Made by a program: the position numbers and the translations under genes. A stretch of 64,000 nt of DNA, taken from Candidatus Poribacteria bacterium (GTDB lineage Bacteria > Poribacteria > WGA-4E > WGA-3G). Location: assembly GCA_965214095.1 (NCBI GenBank), contig OZ243938.1:3232001-3296000 (forward strand), read 5' to 3'. The notes under the pieces were generated by a model that made no database searches, had not been told where the DNA came from, and saw only the letters and a list, made by a program, of their open reading frames with translations. Shown in pieces: positions 3,227 to 53,826 of this stretch (its first letter is position 1; every line of letters begins with the position of its first letter).

Positions 3227-6200
3227 ATGAAAGACAATGACGTTGAATTAATCCACCGCATCCTTGAAGGTGATGATTCTGCTTTCTCCACCTTAGTTGA
3301 GAAATATCAGAAGCAGGTTCACGCACTTGCATGGCGTAAAATCGGTGATTTCCATATTGCCGAAGATATAACACAGGACACCTTCCTGAAAGCATATCAG
3401 AAACTCACGACACTTAAGAACCCGCAACGATTCGCAGGATGGCTCTATGTGATTGCAACACGTTGCTGCCAAGCATGGCTACGCAAAAAACAGATACAGA
3501 CCGAATCGTTAGAAGAAATTGATAGTGATGCGTTAGAACCTGAGGCATATTCACGATATGTTTCTGAGGAGGAGACGAAAGTAACCGTTGCAGCACAACG
3601 TCAAGTCGTCAAGAAACTCCTTGCAACATTGCCTGAGAGTGAACGCACGGTGATAACATTACACTACTTTGGTGAGATGACGTGTGAAAAGATGAGCGAG
3701 TTTTTAGGTGTATCCGCGAACACAATAAAGAGCAGATTACGCCGCGCACGGAACCGTTTGAAACAAGAGGAACCGATGATCCGAGAAGCAATTACGAACT
3801 TCAAAATATCTCCAACACTTACTGAAAATATAATGCAAGAAGTATCACAGATCAAACCTACTCCCCCTTCAGCAAGCAAACCTTTAATTCCGTGGATGAT
3901 GGGTGCCGCAGGGGCAGTATTGATTGCACTGATGTTTGGTATAGGTGGCCAGTTCTTAGCACGTTTCCAAAAACCGTATAGTTTAGATGCTCAATCTGAA
4001 AGGACGGTTGAACTTGTAGATGCACAGGTTGTTCAAAACCTTCAGATAGAATCTGACAACAGAAATCAAACAGGGATGCGATCCGATTTAGGTGGTAGAA
4101 GTAATGGCGATGGAGAGAATGCGGAACAGGCTTTAGGGGACCAAATCGATTACACACGATGGAATTTGCCGATGGGGGCAAAACGGAGATTCGGAAAAGG
4201 AATATTGAACGACATGGAGCTTTCACCTGATGGCAGAACAATTGCAAGCAAAGGGTATCGTAGAACAATTTGGCTATGGGATGCGGAAACGGGTGAACAC
4301 TTGCGTACAATCAAGGTGCCAAATGCTCCAGCCACAGGTTATCAATTTTTTAAAAATGGCACTATGGAAACAACAGTTATTCCTCTTAGTCAATACAATC
4401 CTGACGATGACAGAGCTTCAATTATAGGTTTTAGCGGTTTTAATAATAAAAAAACCAAAGCTGCATACATTGTTTCCTCCGGTCCACTCAGATCAATTGA
4501 ATTCTTAGCAGACAGTAAAACTCTTATGACTCAGAATTTGGATGGTACTGTCTGGTTATGGGATATCACTTCAGGAGAACAGAAAGCATTATTTCGTCCA
4601 GAACTACCTGGATTGAAACTTGATAGTTACATAAGTTGGGTTAATCTTTATCCTGATCAATGGCGGCTGGCGGCTGATGTCTATTTTGCTCCTTCAGGTG
4701 AAGTTATTTATGCTCTCGCTGCGGGAGATAGAATTGGTACAATTTACATACAAGATGGACACACTGGTAAACTATTACGCACACTGGAGGGACAAAGTAA
4801 AATTATAAGCAAAAAAAATACCATAGGTCGAATAGGTTATGGACAAAAAACACCTATTCAAAGTCGCTTGCAAATTCCGGGAATAAAAGATGTCTTTTCA
4901 GGTAAGGAACCTCGGCGAGGCGTGGAATGGATAACAGAATTATATTTTGCGCCAGATGGCAAAACACTTGTGAGTAAAAGCCGATTCAGAAACAGTAATA
5001 GGAGTAGTTATAGTGGTGCCGTTGAACTTTGGGATGTTAAAACAGGTGAACTGCTAACAAGACATGGATTGGGCACAGATTTAAAGTTCTCAGGAGATGG
5101 AAAAGCACTCGCATTTATGAATGGGGTGGGAAGAGGGTACAAGGGATGTGTGATATGGGATCTTGCAGATCGTCGTAAAATTGCTGAATTTGCGGGTAAG
5201 GTTGACCTAAAGTTTTCAAGAGATGGGAAAACATTCACTATTATACGGAATGACAGTTTAGAGATGTGGGATATCGCGACGCGTCGCAAAATCACATCAA
5301 TGAGTACACCTCCAGAACTGTTGACAGTTCTTCCAGACCGGCATGCATTTTCAGGAGATGGTACAATCTTTGCTGCTGTAAATAGATACGGCACAGTCAA
5401 TTTATGGGAAACACAAACTGACACACAACTACGCACCCTCACTACAAACTATTCAACACCAATTACTACGATGGCATTCACACACGATGGCAAATCGCTT
5501 GTAAGTGGGAACGCTTCCGGCAACATTCAACTCTGGAATTTAAACACTGGTAAAGTAAGCAGCACACTAACATCACCTGAAAACAAGTCTATTTATGGAT
5601 TAGTTTTTGCAGAGGACAATGCCACACTCGTCAGTGGAGGCATAAGAAACTTTGATAAATGGAATATTACCACTGGAAAAAGAGTTAACACTTACACTCT
5701 ACAATGGGCAGTGGCACAAGTTTTTAGCAGTACCTCTCATTATGGTATTGGGAGTTCAGGCGATACCGTCTTTACATGGCCCACTACGATTATAGCATTG
5801 ACCCCAAAAGGCGGAAAAATCGCCAAAACTATTTGGTCTTCACATGAAAGAAAAACTGAGGAAGATGGAAGTGAGATTAAGGTATGGGATATTCCGACTA
5901 GCGAACACCTATGTACCGTAACAAATGAATCTTTTGGTCAAACGTTAGCATTCACATCCGATGGAAATATGTTCGCTACTTTGGATGAGGATATATCATA
6001 CACTGTAGATGAACATACTGGTAAGAAAGTTGGAGATTTTAATAAATGTATAGTGTACTTATGGGACACATATACTGGCAAAAAATTAGCAGCATTTGAC
6101 GTGCCGAAGGATCCAGAAAATAACTTCAATCGACCTGATATTTATGCTGGAGTTTTTACACGCGACAGCAAAACGTTTGCTGCTGCTGGGAGTTTTGGAG

Positions 6201-6526
6201 ACAATTCAATCTTTTTATGGGATATTAAAACAAAGACGCATTTCGCAACGCTCAGAGGACATGGACACGTTGTTTGCAGATTGACAGTTTCACCGGATGA
6301 TACTATTCTTGCCAGTGGGGATTCAAATGGTGAAATTCGTTTGTGGAAAATACCTTCAGGTGAACATCTCGTTACATTCCAATCGCCTGGTGGACACATT
6401 AGCAATATTACATTTGCACCTGATAGTAAGAGTTTCGCAAGCACAAATGGTCGTTCAGATGGCGTATCTTCTAATTCCAGAGAAGGTGGAACCATATTCC
6501 TATGGGATGTGCCAAATGTAAAGTAA
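3227..6526 (+). CDS. ECF sigma factor fused to TM helix and WD40 beta-propeller domain
   Basis: sigma2 (AEDITQDTFLKAYQKL..FAGWLYVIA), sigma4 (LPESERTVITLHYFGEMTCEKMSEFLGVSANTIKSRLRRAR), hydrophobic helix, WD40 repeats. Confidence 0.92.
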   Translation: MKDNDVELIHRILEGDDSAFSTLVEKYQKQVHALAWRKIGDFHIAEDITQDTFLKAYQKLTTLKNPQRFAGWLYVIATRCCQAWLRKKQIQTESLEEIDSDALEPEAYSRYVSEEETKVTVAAQRQVVKKLLATLPESERTVITLHYFGEMTCEKMSEFLGVSANTIKSRLRRARNRLKQEEPMIREAITNFKISPTLTENIMQEVSQIKPTPPSASKPLIPWMMGAAGAVLIALMFGIGGQFLARFQKPYSLDAQSERTVELVDAQVVQNLQIESDNRNQTGMRSDLGGRSNGDGENAEQALGDQIDYTRWNLPMGAKRRFGKGILNDMELSPDGRTIASKGYRRTIWLWDAETGEHLRTIKVPNAPATGYQFFKNGTMETTVIPLSQYNPDDDRASIIGFSGFNNKKTKAAYIVSSGPLRSIEFLADSKTLMTQNLDGTVWLWDITSGEQKALFRPELPGLKLDSYISWVNLYPDQWRLAADVYFAPSGEVIYALAAGDRIGTIYIQDGHTGKLLRTLEGQSKIISKKNTIGRIGYGQKTPIQSRLQIPGIKDVFSGKEPRRGVEWITELYFAPDGKTLVSKSRFRNSNRSSYSGAVELWDVKTGELLTRHGLGTDLKFSGDGKALAFMNGVGRGYKGCVIWDLADRRKIAEFAGKVDLKFSRDGKTFTIIRNDSLEMWDIATRRKITSMSTPPELLTVLPDRHAFSGDGTIFAAVNRYGTVNLWETQTDTQLRTLTTNYSTPITTMAFTHDGKSLVSGNASGNIQLWNLNTGKVSSTLTSPENKSIYGLVFAEDNATLVSGGIRNFDKWNITTGKRVNTYTLQWAVAQVFSSTSHYGIGSSGDTVFTWPTTIIALTPKGGKIAKTIWSSHERKTEEDGSEIKVWDIPTSEHLCTVTNESFGQTLAFTSDGNMFATLDEDISYTVDEHTGKKVGDFNKCIVYLWDTYTGKKLAAFDVPKDPENNFNRPDIYAGVFTRDSKTFAAAGSFGDNSIFLWDIKTKTHFATLRGHGHVVCRLTVSPDDTILASGDSNGEIRLWKIPSGEHLVTFQSPGGHISNITFAPDSKSFASTNGRSDGVSSNSREGGTIFLWDVPNVK

Positions 6527-6789
6527 AACAATCCACAAATGATTTGCATCACAATTCTTTTCTTGATGCACACTTCCAACCAATATTTCATTGAACACAA
6601 TCGCAGGAAATCAGGGTTATTTAGGTTTAAGGTTTCGCAATTATTGAGGTTAACGGACTGTTAATTCCCTTCAACGGTCTTATCACTGAATTTATTGGAT
6701 ATATTGATTCTTATCTGAACCAGGATTTTCAGGATTAGTAGATTTTCAGGATTATGAGTGTGGCACTGTATAAAAAACTTGCAGAATTA

Positions 6790-6818
6790 TGCAACCGTTT
6801 TCCTCCTTAGTCGCGTCA
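6790..6818 (+). promoter_or_regulatory. ECF-type promoter
   Basis: TGCAACC-N17-CGTCA; same architecture upstream of all 14 fusion genes. Confidence 0.7.
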
Positions 6819-6878
6819 CAAGGTTTCAAATAATACCATTTCTAAAAAAGAACATACCATTAAAGAGATAGATCGTTC

Positions 6879-6900
6879 GTAGTCGCGCAATTCATTGTGC
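6879..6900 (+). repeat. Single GTAG REP-like palindrome (second family)
   Basis: GTAGTC-GCGCAAT-TC-ATTGTGC imperfect hairpin after GTAG. Confidence 0.4.
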
Positions 6901-6981
6901 CTCGGACATTCCAACTAAATGGGAATATCATTTATAGATTTGGTATAATAAAGTTGAACCTACACTTTCTGGAGGCACCCG

Positions 6982-9912
6982 ATGAAAAATGATGATGTTG
7001 AACTAATTCAAAGTGTTCTTTCTGGCGATGAAGATGCTTTCGCTGAACTTGTGAATAAGCATAAAAAGGCTGTTCACGCACTTGCATGGCGGGTAATTGG
7101 AGACTTCCACATCGCTGAAGACATCACACAGGACACCTTCCTGATAGTGTATCAGAGACTTCACACCTTGAAAGATCCAACCCAGTTTCTTGGATGGCTC
7201 TATGTGATTGCAAGACGCCGATGCTACGCCTGGCTCCGTAAGAAACGGATACGCACACAACCGTTGGAGGACGCAGAAACAACTATGATACAAGAAGATG
7301 TATATTCACGGCATGTAATAGAAGAACGTGCTAACACTGCTGTTGATGCACAACGCGAAGTTGTCAAGAGACTTCTCGCGAAGCTAAAAGAGAGCGAACG
7401 CACGGTGATGACGCTCTACTACCTCGGTGAAATGACAGTCGAAGAGATTAGCAAGTTCTTAGGTGTTTCTGTCGGAACGATAAAAAGTCGGTTACAGCGG
7501 GCACGGAACCGTCTACAGAAGGAGGAAACACTGATTAGAGAAGCACTCGAACATTTCCAACTCTCACCGAACTTAACTGAAAACATCATGCAAGAAGTTT
7601 CACGTCTCAAACCTACGCCTACCGCCAGCAAACCCATAGTGCCGTGGGCAATTGCTGCAACAAGTGCGGTCTTAATTGTGTTGTTACTTGGTATAGGCAG
7701 TCAACACTTAGTCCGTTTTCAGCAACCTTATTCATTAGATGCACAAGCAGAGATGACGGTTGAACTCGTTGATGCTCCTATTATGTTAAATGTTGATAAG
7801 AAACCAGATGTACGACGTGAAATTGGGAATTCAAACGCACTTAATAAAAACGATAGCAACGGTCAGAAACCTGATAACGTTTTGTTAGCCGCCGCGCAGG
7901 TGGAAGGAGAAGACATGTCTAATCAAAAACAACAGTGGATTCATACAAAACCAGTTAGTGGAACTGGAGCCCTGAACCTATGCCCTACCCCTGATGGGGA
8001 TATCTATGTAATAATGAATTATCCTGCTGTCTACAAATTAGCAACAGGTAGAAACACTTGGCAACGTATCCGCATTAACATTAATACCTGGACTGGTAGA
8101 GCCTATATGTCCAAGTGGAACAATACGTTGTACTTTTTGAATAATAATGAACTCTTCACTTCAAAAGATGACGGTGAAAATTGGGATTTACTCTATTCTT
8201 GGAAAGGAGAGAAGTACAAGTTATTAAGTGAAAAATTAGTACTAACGCAACAAGCGTTTTACGTCGCTTTTGAGAATGGTGTTCTCCAGTCTCAGGACAA
8301 AGGCAAAACATGGAAAAACATAAGCGATGGGTGGATGGGAAGAATGAGAACATTAGTTGAGATCCAGAATACGATTTTCGCGGGAACTGACAATGGTTGT
8401 TCTCGTTACAGTGGTGGCGAATGGAAACGCTTGAAATTCCCAGTCACGATTGGCAGGATTATTTCAACTGCAGCAACCAACAGGAAACTCTATATTGCTG
8501 CATGGTTGGATAAGAAAGTTTCTCAAGAATTGAAACGTACTTGGGGAATATTTCGATCAACGGATCTCGGAGATTCATGGCAAGATATTACGCCTACAAA
8601 TGCTTGGAATTTAAACGCAATTCCGCCTGGTATCAGACTCATTGCTTTAGGAGAAACAGTCATAGCAATGGAACGTGGTTTGATCCGTTCAATTGACGGT
8701 GGAGATACCTGGCTGAGTCCACAAGCACATAACACATCACCTACAATGGAAAGTGGTTTGGCAGTTGCGATAGTGAAAAACGATACTATTTATATCAGTA
8801 GTGAAAACGGACTCCATTATTCCACTGATCTTGGTGAATCATGGCACAAGATGAATATCAAGCAAAAGGGAGGAAATATATATGATCTAATCGCTTTTAA
8901 AAAGGTTGATAAAAATCATAGCACACCTGCTGTTCTCTATGCAAGAATAGAATTAGCACTAGGACACGGAGATGAGATTCAAAAAACCGATGACGGCGGC
9001 AATTCTTGGAAACCCGTTCAAATAGCAATACCAATGACAGAACCTAACAGAGAAACCCCACCGCATATCACCCAAATTATTAAAGACGGTGATGTTCTTT
9101 ATGCAAAGGGTAAGGAAAATATATTTCCCAGTTATTATACACGTATTTACCGCGTATCCAGTGATGGTAGGACGCTTGTGCAGATTCAGGGTATGCCAGT
9201 TCTTAATTCGTATGAGTTAGATGAACAAGTATCCGAAGGAAGTGCTCTTGGTGCAACTCAGTTTCTTAAACTGTTTACACAACCAAAAAGTAAACTTAGA
9301 AGTGACCTTACAGAAAGAGGGTTACACGGAGCGTTTGCTGTTACGGAAGACACGTTCTACGTTGAATATAACTATAAGCTCTTCCGGTGGAAGTTTGGTG
9401 ATACAGAATTCTATGACACTGAACAGGAAGAAACCATAGAATTGACTGAGGACATAATAAAGAAAGATCTTAAACTGGCTGTTTCAGGGAATACTGTCTA
9501 TGTTGGAAAACGGGATGGCAATCTCGTTGTATCGCTTAATAGAGGTAACAATTGGGTTGATCTCACCCCTACTCTACCTTTCACAGTTAGAGCTTTCAAT
9601 GACATCGTGGTTGTCGGTAACACAGTATATGTAGCAACAGATGCAGGCGTCGCTGCATCAGATCAAGGTAATAATTGGGGTGTTGTTACTGATTTAGAGA
9701 CTACTAATCTCGTCATGGAACATTTGACTGTTGATGGCACAAAACTCTATGGCGTTACCAAAGATACTGGCATCTATCGATTGGAAAATGACACATGGAA
9801 TCAGATTGTGTCAGAGATACCAGAGAGAATAACATCTCTCGCTGTTGATGGAAATACCTTATATGTGGGAACAGATGGTCAAGGTATGCTTCACCTAAAT
9901 CTAAATAAATAA
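6982..9912 (+). CDS. ECF sigma factor - TM - Asp-box/BNR beta-propeller fusion
   Basis: sigma2/sigma4, TM PWAIAATSAVLIVLLLGIG, repeated SxDxGxxW Asp-boxes. Confidence 0.92.
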   Translation: MKNDDVELIQSVLSGDEDAFAELVNKHKKAVHALAWRVIGDFHIAEDITQDTFLIVYQRLHTLKDPTQFLGWLYVIARRRCYAWLRKKRIRTQPLEDAETTMIQEDVYSRHVIEERANTAVDAQREVVKRLLAKLKESERTVMTLYYLGEMTVEEISKFLGVSVGTIKSRLQRARNRLQKEETLIREALEHFQLSPNLTENIMQEVSRLKPTPTASKPIVPWAIAATSAVLIVLLLGIGSQHLVRFQQPYSLDAQAEMTVELVDAPIMLNVDKKPDVRREIGNSNALNKNDSNGQKPDNVLLAAAQVEGEDMSNQKQQWIHTKPVSGTGALNLCPTPDGDIYVIMNYPAVYKLATGRNTWQRIRININTWTGRAYMSKWNNTLYFLNNNELFTSKDDGENWDLLYSWKGEKYKLLSEKLVLTQQAFYVAFENGVLQSQDKGKTWKNISDGWMGRMRTLVEIQNTIFAGTDNGCSRYSGGEWKRLKFPVTIGRIISTAATNRKLYIAAWLDKKVSQELKRTWGIFRSTDLGDSWQDITPTNAWNLNAIPPGIRLIALGETVIAMERGLIRSIDGGDTWLSPQAHNTSPTMESGLAVAIVKNDTIYISSENGLHYSTDLGESWHKMNIKQKGGNIYDLIAFKKVDKNHSTPAVLYARIELALGHGDEIQKTDDGGNSWKPVQIAIPMTEPNRETPPHITQIIKDGDVLYAKGKENIFPSYYTRIYRVSSDGRTLVQIQGMPVLNSYELDEQVSEGSALGATQFLKLFTQPKSKLRSDLTERGLHGAFAVTEDTFYVEYNYKLFRWKFGDTEFYDTEQEETIELTEDIIKKDLKLAVSGNTVYVGKRDGNLVVSLNRGNNWVDLTPTLPFTVRAFNDIVVVGNTVYVATDAGVAASDQGNNWGVVTDLETTNLVMEHLTVDGTKLYGVTKDTGIYRLENDTWNQIVSEIPERITSLAVDGNTLYVGTDGQGMLHLNLNK

Positions 9913-9997
9913 GTAGATTTGCAATAAACGAATACATGCTCTTGTCGAAGTGCTTTGTAAGTGCACCATAAGCGTCAATTTAGCGTCCTTTCAGGAA

Positions 9998-10096
9998 CGG
10001 TAGGTTCGGTTTCCTAACCGAACCGGATCCTATGCGAAAACTTTATATCAACGGGATCGGCACAAATCTGGTGCGGTTAGGAAACCGCACCTACCG
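9998..10096. repeat. REP doublet (REPIN-like)
   Basis: 99-bp inverted pair CGGTAGGTTCGGTTTCCTAACCGAACC ... GGTGCGGTTAGGAAACCGCACCTACCG. Confidence 0.85.
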
Positions 10097-10175
10097 TCTT
10101 GGGAAATTCAGCATTTGCAAAAGAAAGGACAAGAAAAACCGAAAACTAAATAGTCCTGCTACGACTAACTCATCC

Positions 10176-10279
10176 TTGACAAACCCACCTGATTTGGTAG
10201 AATAGTATCTCACTGTTTCCGACCAACCCATCTGCAAACCTGCAGAATTTGGCAACCTTTTTACATATATCCTGCGTCA
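10176..10279 (+). promoter_or_regulatory. Tandem sigma70 and ECF-type promoters
   Basis: TTGACA-N16-TAGAAT (10176-10203) and GGCAACC-N17-CGTCA (10251-10279). Confidence 0.7.
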
Positions 10280-10327
10280 CTATAGTATGATGTGTGATGA
10301 ATCAACTTTCACTAATGGAGTCACCAG

Positions 10328-13315: not shown

Positions 13316-13401
13316 GTAGATTTGACAATAAACTAATACATGGTCTTGTCGGAGTGCTTTGTAAGTGCACCATAAGCGTCAATTTAGCGTCCTTTCAGGA
13401 A

Positions 13402-13500
13402 CGGTAGGTGCGGTTTCCTAACCGCACCGAATTTGTGCTAAAACCTTTCACAGTCAGTATTCTTGTAGGTTCCAGTGCGGTTAGGAAACCGCACCTACCG
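13402..13500. repeat. REP doublet (REPIN-like), inner spacer in opposite orientation
   Basis: 99-bp inverted pair with GGTGCGGTT/AACCGCACC stems. Confidence 0.85.
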
Positions 13501-13577
13501 TCTTGGGGTTAACTTTCAGTAATCTCTATTCTGGAAAATACTTAAAACTAAATAACCCTACTACGACTAACTCATCC

Positions 13578-13681
13578 TTGACAAACCCACCTGATTTGGT
13601 AGAATAGTATCTCACTGTTTCCGACCAACCAATCTGTAAACCTGAAAAATTATGCAACCGTTCTCCTCCTAACTTGCGTCA
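13578..13681 (+). promoter_or_regulatory. Tandem sigma70 and ECF-type promoters
   Basis: TTGACA-N16-TAGAAT (13578-13605) and TGCAACC-N17-CGTCA (13653-13681). Confidence 0.7.
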
Positions 13682-13730
13682 TTTAGTTTGATACGTGATT
13701 AATCAGACTATTGATTTCTGGAGACACCTT

Positions 13731-16694: not shown

Positions 16695-16775
16695 GTATGC
16701 AATAAACTGATACATGCTCTTGTCGAAGTGCTTTGTAAGTGCACCATAAGCGTCAATTTAGCGTCCTTTCAGGAA

Positions 16776-16874
16776 CGGTAGGTTCGGTTTCCTAACCGAA
16801 CCGGATCCTATGCGAAAACTTTATATCAACGGGATCGGCACAAATCTGGTGCGGTTAGGAAACCGCACCTACCG
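16776..16874. repeat. REP doublet (REPIN-like)
   Basis: Same sequence as 9998-10096, inside a duplicated intergenic block. Confidence 0.85.
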
Positions 16875-16953
16875 TCTTGGGAAATTCAGCATTTGCAAAA
16901 GAAAGGACAAGAAAAACCGAAAACTAAATAGTCCTGCTACGACTAACTCATCC

Positions 16954-17057
16954 TTGACAAACCCACCTGATTTGGTAGAATAGTATCTCACTGTTTCCGA
17001 CCAACCCATTTGCAAACCTGCAGAATTTGGTAACCTTTTTGCATATATCTTGCGTCA
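16954..17057 (+). promoter_or_regulatory. Tandem sigma70 and ECF-type promoters
   Basis: TTGACA-N16-TAGAAT (16954-16981) and GGTAACC-N17-CGTCA (17029-17057). Confidence 0.7.
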
Positions 17058-17105
17058 CTATAGTATGATGTGTGATGAATCAACTTTCACTAATGGAGTC
17101 ACCAG

Positions 17106-20126: not shown

Positions 20127-20175
20127 ATTTTGCAATAAACTAATACATGATCTTGCCGGAGTGCTTTGTAAGTGC

Positions 20176-37336: not shown

Positions 37337-37365
37337 TGCAACCGTTTTACACCTAATTTGAGGCA
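37337..37365 (+). promoter_or_regulatory. ECF-type promoter with altered -10
   Basis: TGCAACC-N17-AGGCA (sister copy at 50613 has AGTCA). Confidence 0.5.
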
Positions 37366-37894: not shown

Positions 37895-37963
37895 GGGGTT
37901 TCTGCTGGAACGATAAAGAGCCGACTTCAACGAGCGCGTAACCGTCTACAGAAGGAGGAAACA

Positions 37964-40476: not shown

Positions 40477-40580
40477 TTGACAAACCCACCTAATTTGGTA
40501 GAATAGTATCTCACTGTTTCCGACCAACTAATCTGTAAACCTGAAAAATTATGCAACCGTTCTCCTCCTAACTTGCGTCA
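40477..40580 (+). promoter_or_regulatory. Tandem sigma70 and ECF-type promoters
   Basis: TTGACA-N16-TAGAAT (40477-40504) and TGCAACC-N17-CGTCA (40552-40580). Confidence 0.7.
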
Positions 40581-43704: not shown

Positions 43705-43733
43705 GGCAACCATTTTGCATCTATCTTGCGTCA
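43705..43733 (+). promoter_or_regulatory. ECF-type promoter
   Basis: GGCAACC-N17-CGTCA. Confidence 0.65.
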
Positions 43734-46700: not shown

Positions 46701-46891
46701 TACTGACTGCTGATGGCACAAAACTCTATGGCGTTACCAAAGATACTGGCATTTATCGTTTGGAAAATGATGCATGGTATCAGATTGTTTCAGAGATTCC
46801 AGATAACATAAATTCTCTCGCTGTTGATGGGAATACCTTATTCGTGGGAACACAAGACCGCGGTATGCTTCATTTCACTCTTGAAGAATAA
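43775..46891 (+). CDS. ECF sigma factor - TM - Asp-box/BNR beta-propeller fusion (start may be ATG 43784)
   Basis: Same architecture; sigma4 GVSTSTIKSRLRRAR. Confidence 0.92.
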   Translation: MYLMNNDDVTLIQRILADDEAAFAELVKKYQKAVHTLAWRKIDDFHIAEDITQDAFLKVYQRLHTLKDPKQFSGWLYVITSNLCATWLRKKRLRTQPIEDEEAVMTPRDVYSQHVVEERNQAAAETQREVVKKLLARLKESERTVMSLYYLGEMRVEEISRFLGVSTSTIKSRLRRARNRLQKEETMIREALEHFKLSPNFTENIMQEISHLKPTPSTSKPLVPWTVAASSAILIVLMLGIGSQNLVRFQKPYSLDAQAEMTVELVDTPIVLNIDAKPDVRNQLGSINPAGDSENEGQKPDEVLLAAAETEDENKVSVPKQRWIQSEPVKGSDVDALSVTSNGELYSVANRHIYKIESDGEAWQQIANIDTLDVKYGSSAFIKEWDNMLYLLLDSTILTSKDDGKTWELVNTLLTDSTFALDFILTNQAFYIIFSNYTAFRSEDKGVTWEAMNVDFPQNPNSIVVIQDTMFTGTFNGLYRLKEDNWVPMKLPGSVSAILSVAGSDGKIYVAAEFSKDVTSSQKVRQGLARGWWIFRSTDLGDSWDDITPKNAWPVMGLPPKIKLVAVGETLLAMEQGMVRSTDAGNTWQPRQLPGTSPSMDNRLSYVATVNDRSIYVGSKKDGLYRSTDGGISWDPVNINGRNWKIITNLITVEGNNKTPNMPSMLYAEFAGDIVKTTDKGKSWRRIRMGIPMTAPVREVPPYFSRLGEFGGTLYAKTDGWRSFRSEYKTGLYRISEDGNSVMSIQGMPTFNSSMLKHLWKNGRRGSLDVSDKSFIEQLNENFVGADQFFKTLAQEKTLTQNELDQEQLYEDQERLILEGLLDGAFAVSGDTFYFEYNFKLFRWKSGETTWYDTGVQETGELRYFEAAKAFEREGLSNEKIGEIIRAWQFGFKLAVSGNTVYVGKRDGTLLQSFDAGTNWVDLTPVLPFPVKAFKDIVIVNDTVYVATDAGVTTSDRGNNWGVITDSEGTNLNMDILTADGTKLYGVTKDTGIYRLENDAWYQIVSEIPDNINSLAVDGNTLFVGTQDRGMLHFTLEE

Positions 46892-46989: not shown

Positions 46990-47087
46990 GAATATGAAAA
47001 GAGAGGATAATGGTATAATATCTGAACATTATACTCTCTTTTCATATTCTTTAAAAACTTGAGACTTTTTCTCCGCAAGTCGCGTCA
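46990..47087 (+). promoter_or_regulatory. 23-bp inverted repeat enclosing TATAAT, followed by ECF-type promoter
   Basis: Arms 46990-47012/47027-47049 (22/23); TTGAGAC-N17-CGTCA at 47059-47087. Confidence 0.6.
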
Positions 47088-47539: not shown

Positions 47540-50530
47540 ATGAAAAATGCTGATGTTGAACTCATCCAACGTGTCCTTGATGGCGATGATACTGCGTTCT
47601 CAGAGCTTGTGAGAAATTATAAGAAGTCAGTCCATGCGCTTGCATGGCGAAAAGTTCAAGACTTCCACATCGCAGAGGACATCACACAGGAAACATTTCT
47701 GAAGGCATATCAGAAGTTGTCAACTTTGAATGAATCACAGTCATTTGCAAGTTGGCTCTATGTGATAGCGGCGAATGAATGTAAGGCATGGCTTCGTCGG
47801 AAACGTATACGGACACAGTCTTTGGAAGATATCAATGATGCAGAGTTGGAACAAGCGACCTATTCCAACTATGTCATTAATGAAAAAGAACGGACATCAG
47901 TAGAAGCGCAGCGCGAAGTTGTCAAGAAGTTGCTTGCGAAGCTGCAGGAGAGTGACCGTACGGTCATAACGCTCTATTACCTCGGGGGAATGACGTATGA
48001 AGAAATCAGCAGATTCTTAGGTGTATCGGTCAGTGCGATCAAGAACCGCCTCTACCGAGCGCGCCAGTTTCTAAAAAAGGAGGAACCCATGATAAGAGAA
48101 GTTTTAGAGAATTACCAAATCACACCCAATTTCACTGAGAACATCATGCAAGAAATATCACGTCTCAAACCTACACCTTCCACCAGCAAACCGCTTGTGC
48201 CGTGGGCAATTGCTGCTACAAGTACAATCTTAATTATGTTGATGCTTGGCATAGGCAGCCAACAATTAGTGCGTTTTCAGCAACCTTTTACATTAGATGC
48301 GCAAGCAGATATGACGGTTGAACTTGTTGACACACCAATTGTGCTGAATCTGGATTCTGTGCCAGATGTTAGAAATAGACTGGGCAGTATAAATCCTGCT
48401 GGTGATAGTGAAAATGAAGGTCAGAAACCAGATGAAGTCCTGTTAGCTGCCGCAGAAACCGAGGATGAGGACAAGGTATCCACACCTAAACAGCAGTGGA
48501 TTCAGTCTGAACCTATTAAAGGTAGTCAAGTATATAGTCTAAAAGGCACCACGCAAGGTGATCTGTATGTTCTTGTGAGTAATAGAGGAACTCCAAACAT
48601 CCTCAAGTTAACATCGGATGGAAATACTTGGCAATCTATAGATGGTTACCCGTCAGGTACAGTTTGGGGATTTAACGCAGCTATGGTAGAGTGGAATAAT
48701 ACTTTTTACATTATACCATCTAACGAGCTCTTTGCATCAGAAGATGAAGGAAAGACTTGGAATTCACTTTACACGTGGTCTAAAGACCACAATGTGATTG
48801 ATCTTCTACCCATGGATAATGCATTCTACGCTGCATTTCAAGAAGGTATTTATAAGTCTGATGATTTAGGAAAGACGTGGAAAGCAATACAAGATGAGCA
48901 AATCAAGTATATCGAATCTCTAGTAAGAATCCAAAACACATTGTTTGTTGAAACATCCACCAAACTTTACCGATTGGATGACGATGGTTTGAACTCATTG
49001 GAATTTCCAGTACCTGTTAGGAGCATTATTTCAGTTGCAGGAACTGATGGAAAGCTTTATGTTGAAGTAACGTCTAATTCAGATCGTAGTTGGTGGATAT
49101 TCCGTTCAACTGATCTTGGGGATTCGTGGATAGATATAACACCGACAAACGCTTGGTCTATAGAAGGACAACCACCTTATTGCAAATTGATTGCATCTGA
49201 AGAAACCCTGTTGGTAATGGAACAGGGAATGGTTCGCTCAACTGATGGAGGGAATACATGGCTGCCTCCACAGTTACCAGGAACCACTCCTTCAATGAGT
49301 AGTTCATATAATGCAGTTGCTGTAAATCAAGACACCTTTTATGTTGGAAGTAGTGATGGCTTACATCATTCAACTAATAAGGGAAAATCGTGGGATTTAG
49401 TGAGAGTCGCTCCAGATATGAGAAGACGTGTAATGTTTAATCTAATCGCAACCAAAAATAGTGTCGATAGTCTAAACTTGATGCCGACACTCTATGGGAT
49501 AGTTGAAGTCGGAGAGATAACAAAAACTAATGATGATGGCAAGTCATGGGAGACTGTTCGTGTTGATACACCTATGTCAACATCAAACAGAGGAAACGTA
49601 CCAACAATAACCCAGATTGTTAAATCAGGCGATGATGTCTACGTTAAAGGAGGATCTCTTGGTGAGGGAAAGGTAGGTCATTACATAGTATCTGACAACG
49701 GGAACACTTTAGTCCCAATTCAGGACATGCCAACTTTCAGTTCAACTGAATTAAGGATGCGTCTATTTACTTCTAAAGATCTTACGATAGGAGAGTTGCA
49801 AGAAGATTTCTCTGGTGCAAAAAATTTCTTCCAACAGATGCTTAATTCAGCACCTCAACAACTAATTAAGCTTGAAGAACTTGGACTTCGTGGCCCTTTT
49901 ACTGTCAGTGGTGACACATTCTATACGGAATACAACCTTAAACTCTTTAGATGGAATCCTGGAGATACAGAATGGTATGACACTGGTCAAGAAGACATTG
50001 GTGACTTTCCCTTGGATGAATTGTTCATAAGCACATTTAAGTCACACTTCATTGTTCCCAAACTTGCAGCTTATGACAACACAGTTTACTACGGAAAGCG
50101 GAATGGACAATTGGTAGTATCGTTTGATAAAGGTAATAATTGGGTTGATCTCACTCCAGGTCTACCCTATAAGGTAAAAACATATAATAGTATCGTGTTT
50201 GTGGGTTCCACAGTATATGTGGCAACAAATGCAGGTATCATTACATCAGATGATGGGAGAACGTGGAAAACTGTCACTGATTCTGGTAGATCTAATATCA
50301 TCATGGCGCATTTAGCTGTGGACGGTACAACACTCTATGGCATTACTAACACAACGAGTATCTACCGTTTAAATAGTGAAAGTGGTGCTTGGGAACAGGT
50401 TGTCACTAAGATACCAGAAATTAAAAATCTCAAAATAAGGGATTTCGTTACATCTTTCGCGGTTGCTGGAAGGACGTTGTATGTAAGTACTGAAGTAAAC
50501 GGAATGTTCCATTTTAACCTTGATGAATAA
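47540..50530 (+). CDS. ECF sigma factor - TM - Asp-box/BNR beta-propeller fusion (RBS displaced by insertion)
   Basis: Intact 996-aa ORF; sigma4 GVSVSAIKNRLYRAR. Confidence 0.9.
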   Translation: MKNADVELIQRVLDGDDTAFSELVRNYKKSVHALAWRKVQDFHIAEDITQETFLKAYQKLSTLNESQSFASWLYVIAANECKAWLRRKRIRTQSLEDINDAELEQATYSNYVINEKERTSVEAQREVVKKLLAKLQESDRTVITLYYLGGMTYEEISRFLGVSVSAIKNRLYRARQFLKKEEPMIREVLENYQITPNFTENIMQEISRLKPTPSTSKPLVPWAIAATSTILIMLMLGIGSQQLVRFQQPFTLDAQADMTVELVDTPIVLNLDSVPDVRNRLGSINPAGDSENEGQKPDEVLLAAAETEDEDKVSTPKQQWIQSEPIKGSQVYSLKGTTQGDLYVLVSNRGTPNILKLTSDGNTWQSIDGYPSGTVWGFNAAMVEWNNTFYIIPSNELFASEDEGKTWNSLYTWSKDHNVIDLLPMDNAFYAAFQEGIYKSDDLGKTWKAIQDEQIKYIESLVRIQNTLFVETSTKLYRLDDDGLNSLEFPVPVRSIISVAGTDGKLYVEVTSNSDRSWWIFRSTDLGDSWIDITPTNAWSIEGQPPYCKLIASEETLLVMEQGMVRSTDGGNTWLPPQLPGTTPSMSSSYNAVAVNQDTFYVGSSDGLHHSTNKGKSWDLVRVAPDMRRRVMFNLIATKNSVDSLNLMPTLYGIVEVGEITKTNDDGKSWETVRVDTPMSTSNRGNVPTITQIVKSGDDVYVKGGSLGEGKVGHYIVSDNGNTLVPIQDMPTFSSTELRMRLFTSKDLTIGELQEDFSGAKNFFQQMLNSAPQQLIKLEELGLRGPFTVSGDTFYTEYNLKLFRWNPGDTEWYDTGQEDIGDFPLDELFISTFKSHFIVPKLAAYDNTVYYGKRNGQLVVSFDKGNNWVDLTPGLPYKVKTYNSIVFVGSTVYVATNAGIITSDDGRTWKTVTDSGRSNIIMAHLAVDGTTLYGITNTTSIYRLNSESGAWEQVVTKIPEIKNLKIRDFVTSFAVAGRTLYVSTEVNGMFHFNLDE

Positions 50531-50612: not shown

Positions 50613-50641
50613 TGCAACCGTTTTACTCCTAATTTGAGTCA
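50613..50641 (+). promoter_or_regulatory. ECF-type promoter
   Basis: TGCAACC-N17-AGTCA. Confidence 0.65.
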
Positions 50642-50691: not shown

Positions 50692-53600
50692 ATGAAAAAC
50701 GACGGTGCACTTATTAGACAAATACTCAGCGGTGATCAAATCGCTTTCGCTGAACTCGTGAAAAAGTATCAAAAACAAGTTCACGTACTAGCGTGGCGAA
50801 AAATTGGAGATTTCCACATTGCCGAGGACATTACCCAGGATGTCTTTCTGAAAGTATATCAGAAACTTCACACTCTGAAAGATGTGAATCAGTTTTCTGG
50901 GTGGCTCTACGTCGTTACAACAAACCTATGCAATACATGGCTCAGTAAAAATCGGATGCACAACCAACCGTTGGAAAACATTGAGACAACCATGATAGAA
51001 AGAGACGTATATTCCCATCATATCACAGAAGAGCGAGTTAAGACCACTCTTGAATCACAACGTGAAGTGGTCAAGAAACTCCTCGCTAAGTTGAAAGAAA
51101 GTGAACGCACGGTAATGACTCTCCACTATCTCGGCGAGATGACAGTGGAAGAGATTAGCAAGTTCTTAGGGGTTTCTGCTGGAACGATAAAGAGCCGACT
51201 TCAACGTGCGCGGAACCGTCTACAGAAGGAGGAAACAATGATTAGAGAAGCACTCGACCATTTTCAAATTTCACCAAACCTAACTGAAAACATCATGCAG
51301 GAAGTATCACATCTCAAACCGACACCTCCCACCAGCAAACCCTTCGTGCCGTGGGCGGTTGCATCTTCAAGTATAGTATTGATTATGATGATGCTCGGAA
51401 TTGGGAGTCAGTACTTAGCCTATTTTCAGAAGCCGTATAGTTTTGATGCTCAGTCAGAGATGACGGTTGAACTAATTGATACACCAATAGTTCTGAATCT
51501 TGATACGCAACCGAGAGAACAATATCAGTTTGGAATTGCAAATGCAATTAGTGAAAATGATAACAGCGGACAGAATCCCGATGAAGTCTTATTAGCTGAT
51601 GGGAAAACTGAAGGTGAAGACATTTCAATACCTAAGCAAGAGTGGGTTGAATATGAACATCAGCCATTCGCTTTTCCAAGCAAATTACTTGCGACACCTG
51701 AAGGTGAACTCTACACTTTGACCGCTGGTGGACACCTCCACAAATTGAAGAGAGATGGTGAAAGTTGGGAACATCTCAATGATATAAGTTCTTTAATTGA
51801 TGATTTTATTGCTCCTGATTCACTAATGGCGGAATGGAACGGTATTCTATACCTGGTGTGGTATAATGAATTCTATGCGTCTAAAGATGATGGAAAAACG
51901 TGGGACTTGGTATATAAATGGGAAATACCTGCTGCGGGAGGGGATTTTGAAGTTCAGGAACTGGTGTTAACGGAAGAATCTTTTTATCTTGTTTACCCAG
52001 ATGCTGTTTTCCGTTCTGAGGATCAAGGAAAAACATGGAAGAATATGCGTGATGAATTTCCAAATGTTCCAGACTCTATAACTGTTTTTCAAGATACAGT
52101 ATTTGTCACATCAGGTACAGGTTTCTATCGAGGCAATGCCGGCAGTTGGCATAAGTTAGCGTTACCAATTCCTGAAACTGTCTATATTACTTCAGTCGCT
52201 GCTTCTAAAAACCGATTATATGTTATGGCAAATTTAGGATCTGACTTTGATCCCCAAGCAGCATCAGAGGGGCGGCAACGAACATGGTGGATATTTCGCT
52301 CAACTGATTTGGGGAATACGTGGAAAGATATAACACCCACAAACGCTTGGCCCATTAAAGGCTGGTACCCAGATCTGAAACTTATTGCTGCTGGAGAGAA
52401 CATCCTGCTAATGGAAAAGGGTATGGTAATGTCAACTGACGGAGGAGAATCTTGGCTGCCACCATTGAAACCCAATGCTTCACCTTCAATGGATTCCTAC
52501 TCACCTGCTGTGGTACTAAACGACCATAGCATTTATGTTGGTAGCGGCGATGGATTTCAAAGTTCCAAAGATGGTGGAAAAACTTGGGAAAGTATTAAAA
52601 TACCAGCACGGAAAAAGTTTTCAAGGAATATCATAGCTAATTTAATCGTATATGATGGAATTGAGAATTCACAAGAAACACCTTCAGCGGTCTATGTTAA
52701 GTCTTGGCGATCACTTGTCAAAACTACAGATAGAGGTAAATCTTGGAATCCTGTTGAAAAGGAAGTACGAATGACAGAACCCTTCAGGGAGGAACAACCG
52801 GAGATTCTTAGCATAGTAGAAGCTGATGATGGACTTTATGCTAAAGGGGGTAGTGGCTATGACACTGTAAAGAAAGTTAATATGTATAGAGTATCTGAAG
52901 ATGGAAACTCGCTGATTGGTATTCAAGGTTTTCCATACTTACACTCTCATTCAATAACTAACAAATTGGATAGGCATCACAGGAACCCCTTAGGGCTGTC
53001 TGATACAGCATTGGTTGAGGAACTTCAAAAGAATTACAAAGGTGCAACGCAGTTTTTCAAGGAATTAGTAGATTTGGCACAGGGAGAATTAGTAGATTTG
53101 GGACAAGGCGGTATTCAAGGCCAAATTATTCTGGTTCAACGTGATCTTATAAATAGAGGTTTAAACGGTACATTTGCGGTAAGTGGAGATACGTTCTACT
53201 TAGAATACAACTTCAAACTCTTCCGATGGACACAAGGTGAAAGAGAATTGTATGATACAGGTGTGGAAGAGACGATTGGTCTTACTATCAGGTTGTCTGA
53301 TGGCAAGTATTTACCCGCTACACTTATACCTCCCGCTGACATGCCAAAAGGACGTGCACTGGAAAAGTTTCGTGCTTTGCATAATCTCAAACTTGCTGTT
53401 TCAGGTAATACTGTCTACGTTGGGAAACGAGATGGCCACCTTCTTGTATCTTATGATAGAGGAGATAATTGGACAGATATCACACAAAGTTTGCCGCATC
53501 CGGTTATTGCGTTCAAGGATATAAAGTTCGTTGGGTCCAAAATATATGTAGCAACGGATGCTGGTGTAACTATGTCACATAATGGAATACAGTGGCATGC

Positions 53601-53826
53601 AATCACTGATGCAGATGGAACAGATCTCGTCATGGAATACTTGGCTGTTGATGGTAGAAGACTGTTTGGAATGACTGATAAAACTGGTGTTTATCTCTTG
53701 GTGAATGGCACTTGGGAACAGATTGTATCAGATACGCCTGAGAGATTTACTTCTCTTGCTATAGATGGGAATACTGTGTATGTTAGCACTATGCAACGTG
53801 GTATGCTCCACTATGTTCTTGAGTAG
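50692..53826 (+). CDS. ECF sigma factor - TM - Asp-box/BNR beta-propeller fusion (last gene of array)
   Basis: Same architecture; most divergent stalk. Confidence 0.92.
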   Translation: MKNDGALIRQILSGDQIAFAELVKKYQKQVHVLAWRKIGDFHIAEDITQDVFLKVYQKLHTLKDVNQFSGWLYVVTTNLCNTWLSKNRMHNQPLENIETTMIERDVYSHHITEERVKTTLESQREVVKKLLAKLKESERTVMTLHYLGEMTVEEISKFLGVSAGTIKSRLQRARNRLQKEETMIREALDHFQISPNLTENIMQEVSHLKPTPPTSKPFVPWAVASSSIVLIMMMLGIGSQYLAYFQKPYSFDAQSEMTVELIDTPIVLNLDTQPREQYQFGIANAISENDNSGQNPDEVLLADGKTEGEDISIPKQEWVEYEHQPFAFPSKLLATPEGELYTLTAGGHLHKLKRDGESWEHLNDISSLIDDFIAPDSLMAEWNGILYLVWYNEFYASKDDGKTWDLVYKWEIPAAGGDFEVQELVLTEESFYLVYPDAVFRSEDQGKTWKNMRDEFPNVPDSITVFQDTVFVTSGTGFYRGNAGSWHKLALPIPETVYITSVAASKNRLYVMANLGSDFDPQAASEGRQRTWWIFRSTDLGNTWKDITPTNAWPIKGWYPDLKLIAAGENILLMEKGMVMSTDGGESWLPPLKPNASPSMDSYSPAVVLNDHSIYVGSGDGFQSSKDGGKTWESIKIPARKKFSRNIIANLIVYDGIENSQETPSAVYVKSWRSLVKTTDRGKSWNPVEKEVRMTEPFREEQPEILSIVEADDGLYAKGGSGYDTVKKVNMYRVSEDGNSLIGIQGFPYLHSHSITNKLDRHHRNPLGLSDTALVEELQKNYKGATQFFKELVDLAQGELVDLGQGGIQGQIILVQRDLINRGLNGTFAVSGDTFYLEYNFKLFRWTQGERELYDTGVEETIGLTIRLSDGKYLPATLIPPADMPKGRALEKFRALHNLKLAVSGNTVYVGKRDGHLLVSYDRGDNWTDITQSLPHPVIAFKDIKFVGSKIYVATDAGVTMSHNGIQWHAITDADGTDLVMEYLAVDGRRLFGMTDKTGVYLLVNGTWEQIVSDTPERFTSLAIDGNTVYVSTMQRGMLHYVLE

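Follow-up and report, generated by a model that had tools for sequence, protein, structure and literature searches.

How can a long series of divergent, propeller-bearing proteins be connected to transcription if no anti-sigma gene lies between their genes? The question is raised by a locus of a Candidatus Poribacteria bacterium, studied here in a stretch of 64,000 nucleotides (contig OZ243938.1; G000:C1:3232001-3296000, where G000 is the genome carrying the array), which is called the window throughout. Positions 3227-53826 of the window hold 14 paralogs of about 3 kb, all on the same strand and arranged head-to-tail (g01 to g14). Each of them encodes an extracytoplasmic function (ECF) sigma factor, one transmembrane (TM) helix, a conserved stalk and a large propeller region, which is of the Asp-box type in 13 genes and of the WD40 type in one, g01. 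An earlier note, made from the sequence without database searches, had described this architecture and read the array as a diversified surface-sensing library wired directly to transcription. The list of open reading frames (ORFs), Pfam and alignment agree with its gene count and its division into 13 and one, the order of domains is borne out by Pfam, NCBIfam and hydropathy, and the stalk and framework motifs that it quoted are visible in the translations. The array is real and ordered, and not a product of chance.

It is argued here that the proteins are very probably genuine membrane-anchored, self-activating sigma-sensor fusions. The strongest evidence was absent from the earlier note and comes from two sources, promoters that match the sigma domains and the exchange of modules between genes. 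ECF sigma factors that carry fused extensions have been described as one-component systems among the sigma factors, and their membrane-spanning propeller types are not known to have ever been tested.

Promoters that match their sigma domains

When the 150 nt upstream of the 14 start codons were aligned, two conserved hexamers separated by a variable spacer appeared before all 14 genes, and the predicted sites of all 14 read GCAACC-N16-GCGTCA or a variant of it, in keeping with the AAC-type -35 and CGT-type -10 elements by which ECF self-promoters are recognised (table 1). Judged from their sequences, these putative promoters form at least four -35/-10 combinations in the window; the promoter of a fifteenth family member, whose 3' end reaches into the window, reads GCACCC-N15-GCGTCA. 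All 11 strict-pattern matches in the window lie on the forward strand upstream of array genes, and of the 22 sites in the whole genome that agree exactly with a class consensus, 16 lie before family genes. A motif score of at least 12 is reached by 16 of 35 family genes, by 8 of 3727 other ORFs, which are unremarkable at a score of 12, and by none of 18 stand-alone sigma genes; at a score of at least 13 the counts are 11/35, 0/3727 and 0/18. Paralogs at distant loci retain the hexamers 52-92 nt before the start codon while their spacers are unrelated, and therefore the conservation does not merely reflect recent duplication.

The covariation of promoter and protein was followed in 60 genes from five genomes (35 from G000 and 25 from four congeners). 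At the end of region sigma2.4, the variable position of the motif WL[x]K is Ser or Gly in all eight genes with a -10 GAGTC and Arg in 37 of 37 genes with GCGTC, one more GCGTC gene having an unreadable motif, so that the identity of one -10 base is predicted to depend on a single residue. With this column left out of the sigma tree, four independent switches are seen, all four of them concordant. The -35 GAGACT is paired with the sigma4.2 helix SVS[AS]IKNRLYRARQ[FH]L in 11 of 11 cases. Since the promoter variants track residues of sigma2.4 and sigma4.2, each sigma domain seems to be a functional reader of DNA that activates its own gene. The family has split into a few specificity classes, and the direct wiring to transcription claimed in the earlier note gains support.

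A second, housekeeping-type promoter-like site is located about 75 nt 5' of the ECF-type site of g03. Its counterparts before g04, g05 and g06 agree with it, with 11/12 matches for each of the four genes, and the upstream region of g11 aligns to the same element (by alignment, outside the scan of g03 to g06). By its sequence this site could supply basal expression.

Exchange of modules between genes

Comparison of array genes at the DNA level shows abrupt changes of identity, with sharp breakpoints. Genes g08 and g09 are 98-100% identical from -40 to +360, which comprises promoter and sigma, and about 55% identical beyond; g04 and g11 are 95-100% identical from -139 to +460, again promoter and sigma, and about 50% beyond. 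In g03 and g05 an identity of 92-99% extends from -139 to +960, which is exactly the junction between stalk and propeller, then falls to 39-55% and returns to 91-93% at the 3' end. The pair g09/g12 is 92-100% identical in the last 300 nt only, and g06/g07 show the reverse pattern, with 80-92% in the propeller and 45-73% in the sigma part.

The trees repeat this discordance. In the sigma tree g04 groups with g11, g03 with g05 and g08 with g09; in the propeller tree window genes pair with those of other species (g05 with G006; g03, g04 and g09 with G024; g10 with G005; g06/g07 with G022). Approximately unbiased (AU) tests on the propeller alignment reject the clades g04+g11 (p 1.5e-7) and g03+g05 (p 9e-149), the tested groups having been chosen after both trees had been inspected. 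Two neighbouring genes of G022 share an identical propeller core (synonymous divergence, dS, 0.003), and their sigma modules stand at a dS of 2.6. The discordant histories in pairs, trees and G022 indicate that sensors and sigma/promoter modules have been recombined in both directions.

Several of the genes are preceded by a repeated intergenic unit, which holds a long palindrome (z -5.87) made from a genome-wide repeat. The core of this repeat, GGAAACCGCACCTACC, has 686 matches in the genome at up to two mismatches, against 0-3 for shuffled cores. In sequence it looks like a repetitive extragenic palindromic (REP) or miniature inverted-repeat transposable element (MITE), and it may promote the module exchanges.

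Array content was compared across related genomes, as the earlier note had proposed, and the locus proved to be syntenic, with from at least 4 up to 14 copies. The conserved gene of 1243 codons that adjoins the array is found at 77-90% identity in 5/5 congeners searched, and sigma-fusion genes at this locus number at least 5 in G005, at least 4-5 in G006, at least 4 in G022, at least 12 in G024 and 14-15 in G000, these numbers being lower bounds from 36-52 kb covered per locus.

Selection was measured by domain segment as pairwise Nei-Gojobori ratios of nonsynonymous to synonymous divergence (dN/dS). The ratio is 0.08-0.15 in sigma, where many dS values are saturated, 0.11-0.26 in linker and TM helix, 0.10-0.40 in the stalk, 0.25-0.35 in the variable core and 0.17-0.24 in the last blades, the latter two ranges holding for 8/9 pairs. 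The ninth pair consists of the G022 neighbours, for which the core ratio is meaningless at a dS of 0.003 and the last blades give 0.58. On the one hand, the sensor is under weaker constraint than sigma; on the other hand, selection on it is still purifying at the domain level, and because of the domain-wide ratio of the core positive selection is not supported. The diversified library of the earlier note stands in so far as variable cores have been exchanged between sigma modules.

The array is best explained as a birth-and-death gene family with recombination of modules. A bolder reading is possible though doubtful: such arrays would be a recombination-driven combinatorial repertoire, in which two conserved parts serve as homology arms, at the 5' end about 1 kb from promoter through sigma and TM helix to stalk, together with the repeated intergenic unit, and at the 3' end the blades. 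Variable propeller cassettes would be swapped between these arms among a handful of mutually insulated sigma/promoter channels. The symbiont could in this way rewire the coupling of ligand to channel, possibly with a tethered sigma acting in cis on a membrane-proximal array. If true, bacteria would here possess an equivalent of a receptor gene repertoire.

A complete sigma factor on a short predicted tether

Five genes with an intact sigma part (g01, g02, g04, g05 and g14) were scanned with Pfam; the Asp-box C-termini scanned were those of g02, g04, g05 and g14 and of the 3' ORF of g10, in which no sigma part is left, and the other eight array genes were assigned by alignment and by phmmer to g02. 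Sigma70_r2, Sigma70_r4_2 and Sigma70_ECF lie above their cut-offs at residues 1-185 in all five intact genes, and the NCBIfam model TIGR02937 (sigma70-ECF) reaches 99.6 and 97.8 bits against a cut-off of 42.9. Regions sigma2 and sigma4 are present without sigma3 or sigma1.1, as in ECF group IV, and the nearest solved sigma protein is SigW (5.5e-31). The AlphaFold2 (AF2) model of the N-terminal part consists of two helical domains joined by a disordered linker (92-109), and in the g04 model sigma2 occupies residues 1-91, sigma4 125-180, the TM helix 220-238 and the stalk the residues up to about 320.

Only about 35 residues of conserved linker separate sigma4 from the TM helix, and within them a conserved helix (198-209) is predicted with moderate confidence (block predicted local distance difference test, pLDDT, 75). 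One hydrophobic 19-mer at about 220-238 is present in 14/14 proteins (mean Kyte-Doolittle 1.96-2.35), and the hydropathy scan of the 14 proteins found no second TM-like window except a weaker one inside the g05 propeller. Two to three Lys/Arg residues flank the helix on its N-terminal side, and its N-terminal half is rich in Ala, Ser and Gly. The TM call is taken from hydropathy and not from AF2, in which residues 181-316 (linker, TM helix and stalk) have a pLDDT below 50 and the stalk is predicted to be disordered.

As the earlier note had stated, separate anti-sigma genes are absent: among the ORFs between the genes none exceeds 71 amino acids. The zinc-binding anti-sigma (ZAS) motif, H-x3-C-x2-C, is lacking near the TM helix in all 14 genes, and no anti-sigma family is found among the Pfam matches of the scanned proteins, which are thus not sigma/anti-sigma fusions of the IutY or ECF52 type. 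Among the 13 Asp-box paralogs the mean identity is 69% in sigma, 80% in linker plus TM helix, the most conserved segment, and 69% in the stalk. Such high conservation of linker, TM helix and stalk among divergent paralogs fits a shared processing machinery.

Because the sigma domain lacks a signal peptide and has to come into contact with RNA polymerase, the N-terminus is expected to be inside and the C-terminus outside. In a diderm the propellers would thus lie in the periplasm, and not at the cell surface, as the surface-sensing library of the earlier note implies.

The propeller ectodomain

The C-terminal region of about 650 residues matches Sortilin-Vps10, BNR, PSII_BNR and DUF6242 in the five scanned Asp-box proteins and WD40 in g01. 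Gathering cut-offs are passed by Sortilin-Vps10 (44.1-54 bits against 33) and by DUF6242 (29.1-43.6 against 29), and PF25852 (DUF6242_C) is precomputed on nearly all homologs. The structure prediction that the earlier note had suggested was run with AF2 on a 68-row alignment and gave an ectodomain (320-987) with a pLDDT of about 85-95. VIA-align resolves it into two seven-bladed propellers (about 327-625 and 630-987 in the g04 model, with a helical insert at 746-792), a fold like that of glycoside hydrolase family GH74 and unlike the ten-bladed Vps10. Close superpositions are those on 3b7f (Z 20.5, root mean square deviation (rmsd) 3.1 over 265 residues) and on G-beta (Z 19.9, rmsd 3.2). GH74 enzymes reach Z 20-21.4 over about 560 residues at an rmsd of about 9 Å (2cn3_A: Z 21.4, rmsd 9.2 over 563). 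Foldseek ranks GH74 xyloglucanases at the top (E 6e-21) and also finds the periplasmic sensors of the hybrid two-component systems (HTCS) BT4673, BT4663 and BT3049 (E 2e-19 to 3e-15; Z 19.4). A single-sequence search of the PDB found no match, and Reg_prop, YYY, histidine kinase, receiver and AraC domains, which characterise HTCS, are not found among the Pfam matches of the scanned proteins.

The constant framework with variable loops noted earlier is evident in the alignment. Mean identity among the 13 Asp-box paralogs is 41% over residues 336-560, 40% over 561-760 and 61% in the last blades. Strands are better conserved than loops (0.59 versus 0.48 in propeller 1, 0.63 versus 0.55 in propeller 2), indel hot spots are located in the propeller loops, and the ectodomain positions that never vary are Asp-box, Gly and Trp residues of the framework.

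Distribution in the genome and the phylum

The earlier picture of an array of 14 genes has to be amended, since two unrelated secreted propeller genes break it up, further members lie upstream, and G000 encodes 35 ORFs with the family sigma domain (E<1e-50). The array therefore belongs to a genome-wide expansion. In G000, 53 ORFs have a sigma match, 31 the stalk and 20 an Asp-box propeller, and family members with the same promoter also occur singly at the distant loci C1:2509, 4430081 and 5145199. The same sigma module carries other C-termini outside the array; among 10 scanned, WD40 was found in seven, and the others include Ig-like/CarboxypepD_reg and one DnaN-like clamp.

The clamp protein is an unusual fusion in its own right (G000:C1:2353772-2355505; 577 amino acids). 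Its family ECF sigma (1-185) is joined to a three-domain DnaN-like sliding clamp (DNA_pol3_beta N, central and C domains, residues 209-574), which leaves no space for a TM helix, and its promoter reads GCAACA-N15-GCGTCA. Another locus (G000:C1:1876722-1882917) consists of three tandem genes of about 565 amino acids, in which the family sigma is followed by a C-terminus of 316 amino acids with no Pfam or NCBIfam family; a variant promoter, TGCACG-N16-TCGTCA, precedes two of the three.

All named homologs are from Candidatus Poribacteria and are annotated as 'sigma-70 family RNA polymerase sigma factor' or hypothetical. In the homolog search 7431 of 8000 scored candidates have E<=0.001, and the best 120 cover 94-100% of the query. 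In an exhaustive search with stalk and propeller, 108 cluster representatives reached E<=1e-30; of 150 representatives listed, at least 28 align from their own residue 248 or so, which corresponds to the same N-terminal module. This query matches 24/24 congeneric genomes; in the order's other families matches are weak or absent. With the sigma-TM-stalk part as query (E<=1e-40), matches were obtained in at least 131 of the 151 genomes that sample the phylum, G000 included. Family f1 accounts for at least 97 of 99 genomes, with up to 116 first-look candidates per genome; 24/26 genomes of f3 and 8/10 of f2 match, with only 1-5 matches each, 1/2 genomes match in f6, and 0/13 in f4, f5, f7, f8 and f9. 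The matches of f1 far outnumber those of the other families, which indicates a massive expansion in one Poribacteria family. In the Atlas, queried with P0008, a homolog of g04, clusters combine sigma with Kelch in Poribacteria and with WD40 or PD40 in Planctomycetota.

Proposed mechanism and alternative explanations

We propose that each protein is a one-component transmembrane signalling protein, in which a complete cytoplasmic ECF (group IV) sigma would be tethered, by the 35-residue conserved linker and one TM helix, to a periplasmic sensor consisting of a probably unstructured juxtamembrane stalk and two seven-bladed propellers. Basal expression would probably come from the housekeeping-type promoter where there is one. 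Binding of a ligand to the variable propeller surface would lead to cleavage in the conserved stalk, and subsequent intramembrane cleavage by an RseP-type site-2 protease would free sigma, which would then join RNA polymerase and fire its own ECF-type promoter, as a positive feedback, together with other targets. The ligands would most likely be oligosaccharides or glycan fragments that enter the periplasm. Recombination would swap promoter-sigma modules and sensor cores, and through this exchange several sensors would feed few promoter classes.

Taken as a whole, a sensor with proteolytic sigma release is our best explanation, and we consider it somewhat more probable than its negation. For the release step itself the balance is even. 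It is proposed because linker, TM helix and stalk are conserved, Ala, Ser and Gly abound in the first half of the TM helix, the genome encodes an RseP-type site-2 protease (PF02163, 231.8 bits), and IutY and SCO4117 provide precedents. Glycan ligands are plausible by analogy, if a little short of even; they are suggested by the fold relatives (GH74 and HTCS), by the secreted DUF6242 relatives with dockerins or tails for the type IX secretion system (T9SS), and by the need of the ligand to enter the periplasm.

Several points weigh against this proposal. The full-length AF2 model shows no TM helix, and the N-terminal model only a short one of low confidence. All 14 control genomes also encode a site-2 protease, and finding one therefore proves little. 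Without an anti-sigma domain the tether alone would have to hold sigma inactive, and cleavage, release and ligand are all things that we infer. The sign test on the covariation gives p 0.125, the best value that four pairs can reach and one that cannot be significant. Whole-genome regex and consensus scans gave no convincing target promoters outside the family: at up to one mismatch there are 183 matches against 191 in the reversed-sequence control, another loose pattern gives 147 against 135, and only about five non-family matches are both intergenic and upstream of an ORF. The RNA evidence consists of contigs only, those of metatranscriptome run X1, which are 92-99% identical over parts of 6501-26500, may include DNA and have no 5' ends; run X6 gave no match. 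The likeness to GH74 is at the fold level only (TM-score 0.3-0.43, rmsd about 9 Å), and the GH74 sequence matches of a profile search are single Asp-box blades, out of register. Finally, the WD40 relatives hint at protein ligands.

If this hint is followed, the signalling would be the same, but the ligands would be proteins or macromolecular surfaces (host matrix, neighbouring cells or phage parts) and the array would be a library for biotic partners. WD40, Kelch and PD40 propellers are typically protein-binding, and all three occur on the sigma module, WD40 in 7/10 non-array C-termini and Kelch and PD40 in the Atlas fusions; in the array, variation is heaviest in the loops, where indel hot spots also lie, and copy number turns over fast between species, from 4 to 14 at one locus. 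We nevertheless regard such ligands as unlikely, since a periplasmic position would restrict large ligands, the Asp-box double propellers look like proteins that handle glycans (GH74, HTCS sensors and DUF6242 proteins with a dockerin or T9SS tag), and a domain-wide dN/dS of 0.25-0.35 is unlike an arms race.

The absence of an anti-sigma domain to restrain a released-type sigma also invites the view that sigma works while tethered, in the manner of ToxR or CadC, with the ligand changing conformation or oligomeric state and no release. A membrane-bound holoenzyme would reach membrane-proximal DNA only, chiefly its own co-translationally inserted gene and the tandem neighbours, which would explain both the clustering of the genes and the promoter matches confined to the family. 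Strong matches before family genes only, the tandem arrays at the syntenic locus and the conserved, moderately confident linker helix 198-209 are consistent with this. It is a serious alternative but distinctly unlikely all the same, because members with the same promoter sit singly at distant loci and a purely self-directed circuit would have no evident output. We know of no precedent for a sigma factor that acts while membrane-tethered. IutY, which is fused and characterised, is released by proteolysis, and release has been inferred for SCO4117, according to the part of the review available to us (PMC8999054).

It is very improbable that the propellers are membrane-anchored periplasmic GH74-like enzymes of mainly catabolic role, whose abundance the sigma would couple to expression. 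Among the best fold matches the GH74 enzymes are indeed highest in identity (16-18%), and an NCBIfam glycosylhydrolase model matches below threshold (89.3 bits against a cut-off of 175), but sequence searches found no global homology to GH74, the conserved acidic positions, by reading, are mostly those of the Asp-box motifs with no conserved catalytic pair identified, cores only about 40% identical would be unusual for paralogous enzymes with one active site, and the strongly constrained sigma with its matched promoter argues for signalling. That the array is mostly decaying duplicated DNA, kept alike by gene conversion and without current function, is hardly credible: an in-frame stop in g10, a copy without sigma (687-3017) and the active recombination indicated by palindromic repeats and near-identical intergenic units would fit, but 13/14 frames of about 1000 codons are intact, dN/dS is 0.08-0.35 across domains, propeller orthogroups are kept across species, promoter and sigma covary, and the family is present in 24/24 congeneric genomes searched.

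With the sensor-sigma fusion as the preferred reading, the family, which makes up 35 of 53 sigma-match ORFs and is expanded in one Poribacteria family, is probably a main route by which these uncultivated bacteria read their surroundings; for sponge symbionts these are plausibly the glycan matrix of the host. The locus offers matched sigma/promoter pairs in at least four -35/-10 combinations, and natural chimeras in which the same sensor is joined to different sigmas and the same sigma to different sensors. It is therefore a handle on tethered-sigma activation and a source of insulated sensor-promoter parts.

Features of the window

The coordinates are collected in table 1. The stop codon of g10 lies within sigma region 4, where FLGVS (Leu) has become F*GVS, and splits the frame into ORFs of 234 and 766 amino acids; a conserved Trp is also altered (SGWLYV to SGLLYV). 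Since the ortholog of G005 is intact, the stop is either a recent inactivation, making g10 a pseudogene, or a sequencing or assembly error. The PD40 gene may be co-transcribed with g07. The product of the second interrupting gene has an N-terminus that is signal-peptide-like by eye, and its T9SS sorting domain (TIGR04183) scores 29 bits against a cut-off of 23; proteins with WD40 and a Por tail were noted in Poribacteria by Kamke et al. 2014, who, in the part of that paper available to us, did not know a secretion system for them. For the 1243-amino-acid protein no Pfam family was found, and its NCBIfam match is at chance level only. With the NHL gene beside the array counted in, the local density of propeller proteins is unusual and comprises five repeat types. 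An Rfam scan of the window found no family.

Table 1. Features of the array and its surroundings, in window positions; sites and repeats are predictions from sequence
Feature	Position	Strand	Description
15th family member, 3' end	1-252	+	sigma, stalk, other C-terminus; 1091-aa ORF C1:3228977-3232252
Palindromic repeat, inverted pairs in intergenic units	391-514, 10014-10080, 13418-13484, 16792-16858, 20225-20424		
Sigma-less copy	687-3017	+	begins within linker (IMQEVSRL), then TM helix, WD40 propellers; 52-aa match to linker and TM
g01 promoter, ECF-type	3139-3166	+	GCACCC-N16-GCGTCA
g01	3227-6526	+	1099 aa; ECF sigma, TM, stalk, WD40 propellers
g02 promoter, ECF-type	6791-6818	+	GCAACC-N16-GCGTCA
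g02	6982-9912	+	976 aa; ECF sigma, TM, stalk, Asp-box double propeller
Repeated intergenic unit, about 410 nt	9913-10327	+	63-98% identical upstream of g03, g04, g05, g06, g11
Housekeeping-type site, g03	10176-10203	+	TTGACA-N16-TAGAAT with TG
g03 promoter, ECF-type	10252-10279	+	GCAACC-N16-GCGTCA
g03	10328-13315	+	995 aa; as g02
Housekeeping-type site, g04	13578-13605	+	as g03 site
g04 promoter, ECF-type	13654-13681	+	GCAACC-N16-GCGTCA
g04	13731-16694	+	987 aa from ATG at 13731; as g02
Housekeeping-type site, g05	16954-16981	+	as g03 site
g05 promoter, ECF-type	17030-17057	+	GTAACC-N16-GCGTCA
g05	17106-20126	+	1006 aa; as g02
Housekeeping-type site, g06	20539-20566	+	as g03 site
g06 promoter, ECF-type	20615-20642	+	GCACCA-N16-GCGTCA
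g06	20667-23672	+	1001 aa; as g02
g07 promoter, ECF-type	23738-23764	+	GAGACT-N15-GAGTCA
g07	23813-26830	+	1005 aa from ATG; as g02; sigma of GAGACT class
PD40 (TolB-like) periplasmic propeller protein	27116-28105	+	329 aa; Pfam; between g07 and g08
g08 promoter, ECF-type	28229-28255	+	GAGACT-N15-GAGTCA
g08	28302-31331	+	1009 aa; as g02
Secreted WD40 protein	31533-33896	+	T9SS type A sorting domain
g09 promoter, ECF-type	34158-34184	+	GAGACT-N15-GAGTCA
g09	34231-37254	+	1007 aa; as g02
g10 promoter, ECF-type	37338-37365	+	GCAACC-N16-GAGGCA
g10	37418-40264	+	as g02; one in-frame TAA at 37892-37894
g11 promoter, ECF-type	40553-40580	+	GCAACC-N16-GCGTCA
g11	40630-43629	+	999 aa; as g02
g12 promoter, ECF-type	43706-43733	+	GCAACC-N16-GCGTCA
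g12	43784-46891	+	1035 aa from ATG; as g02
g13 promoter, ECF-type	47061-47087	+	GAGACT-N15-GCGTCA; unusually distant, 453 nt 5' of start codon
g13	47540-50530	+	996 aa; as g02
g14 promoter, ECF-type	50614-50641	+	GCAACC-N16-GAGTCA
g14	50692-53826	+	1044 aa; as g02
1243-aa protein	53898-57629	-	signal-like N-terminus, Ser/Thr-rich region
NHL-repeat six-bladed propeller protein	57641-58810	-	adjoins array

Comparison with known systems

Among the known systems closest in layout are the ECF01-Gob and ECF57 sigma factors of Planctomycetes, which likewise have an ECF core and a large propeller extension in one chain, expanded paralogs and no separate anti-sigma. Jogler and co-workers are said to have given ECF01-Gob, in 2012, a layout of TM helix and WD40. 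The group is named in PMC4937300 and PMC5766207, and WD40-bearing ECF sigma factors of Planctomycetes are described in the available parts of PMC8567305 and PMC8999054. For ECF57 the latter, in that part, gives two conserved cysteines, one in sigma2 and one in sigma4, and proposes protein interaction for the extension, with no membrane topology. In the present family Cys81 of sigma2 is invariant (68/68 and 42/42); 22 of 59 members, g01 among them, have a Cys in sigma4, and V, Y, I or S is found instead in the 13 Asp-box array genes. In contrast to both groups, 13 of the 14 array genes carry GH74-like Asp-box double propellers (DUF6242, DUF6242_C, Sortilin-Vps10), WD40 being confined to g01 and to non-array members, and the family has a shared TM-plus-stalk module, long tandem arrays and module exchange.

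Two characterised or proposed membrane-bound sigma fusions bear on the mechanism, both in the portion of PMC8999054 available to us. IutY of Pseudomonas putida (ECF243) is a sigma/anti-sigma hybrid subject to proteolysis by Prc and RseP, and its truncated form is constitutively active. Its single chain runs from a cytoplasmic sigma through a TM segment into the periplasm and is a mechanistic precedent for release, but it has its own anti-sigma portion and serves siderophore cell-surface signalling with an outer-membrane transducer, whereas the proteins described here have a double-propeller ectodomain, and an anti-sigma domain was not found in them. SCO4117 of Streptomyces coelicolor (ECF52) combines an ECF sigma, TM segments and an extracytoplasmic carbohydrate-binding domain, and its activation is proposed to be proteolytic; it differs in its zinc-finger (ZAS-like) anti-sigma domain, its ectodomain fold and its phylum.

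On the sensor side, HTCS occur as many paralogs per genome. Those of Bacteroides (BT4663, BT4673, BT3049) also unite a periplasmic tandem propeller sensor and a transcriptional output in one polypeptide, and BT4663 senses heparin/heparan sulphate according to its PDB title. Their output, however, consists of histidine kinase, receiver and AraC domains and not of a sigma factor, and with an rmsd of 17-22 Å the structures superpose so poorly that nothing beyond the two-propeller plan is shared. GH74 xyloglucanases, the best structural matches, have two seven-bladed Asp-box propellers as well, but the present family is membrane-anchored and fused to sigma. The secreted double propellers of Ignavibacteriota, Bacteroidota, Acidobacteriota and others belong to the same Pfam families (DUF6242, DUF6242_C, Sortilin-Vps10) and have a similar predicted fold (TM 0.55-0.71 by target); they end in T9SS tails or dockerins and are without sigma, TM helix and stalk.

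The literature searches turned up no account of an ECF sigma fused to an Asp-box propeller, of gene arrays of this kind or of the promoters of such genes. ECF sigma factors extended at the C-terminus form a recognised class, with nineteen groups in the 2021 ECF reclassification, and its main text, as far as available, does not mention WD40, BNR or Poribacteria; papers on Poribacteria, in the parts available, report abundant WD40 and TM-anchored repeat proteins with sigma fusions unmentioned (PMC3909097; PMC8163846). The earlier note was right for the most part in its outline, but it overstated the novelty of the kind, since the general type of an ECF with a WD40 extension is already described. 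What is new is the Asp-box double-propeller sensor, the shared TM-stalk module, the covariation of promoter and sigma, and the cassette-like recombination in syntenic arrays.

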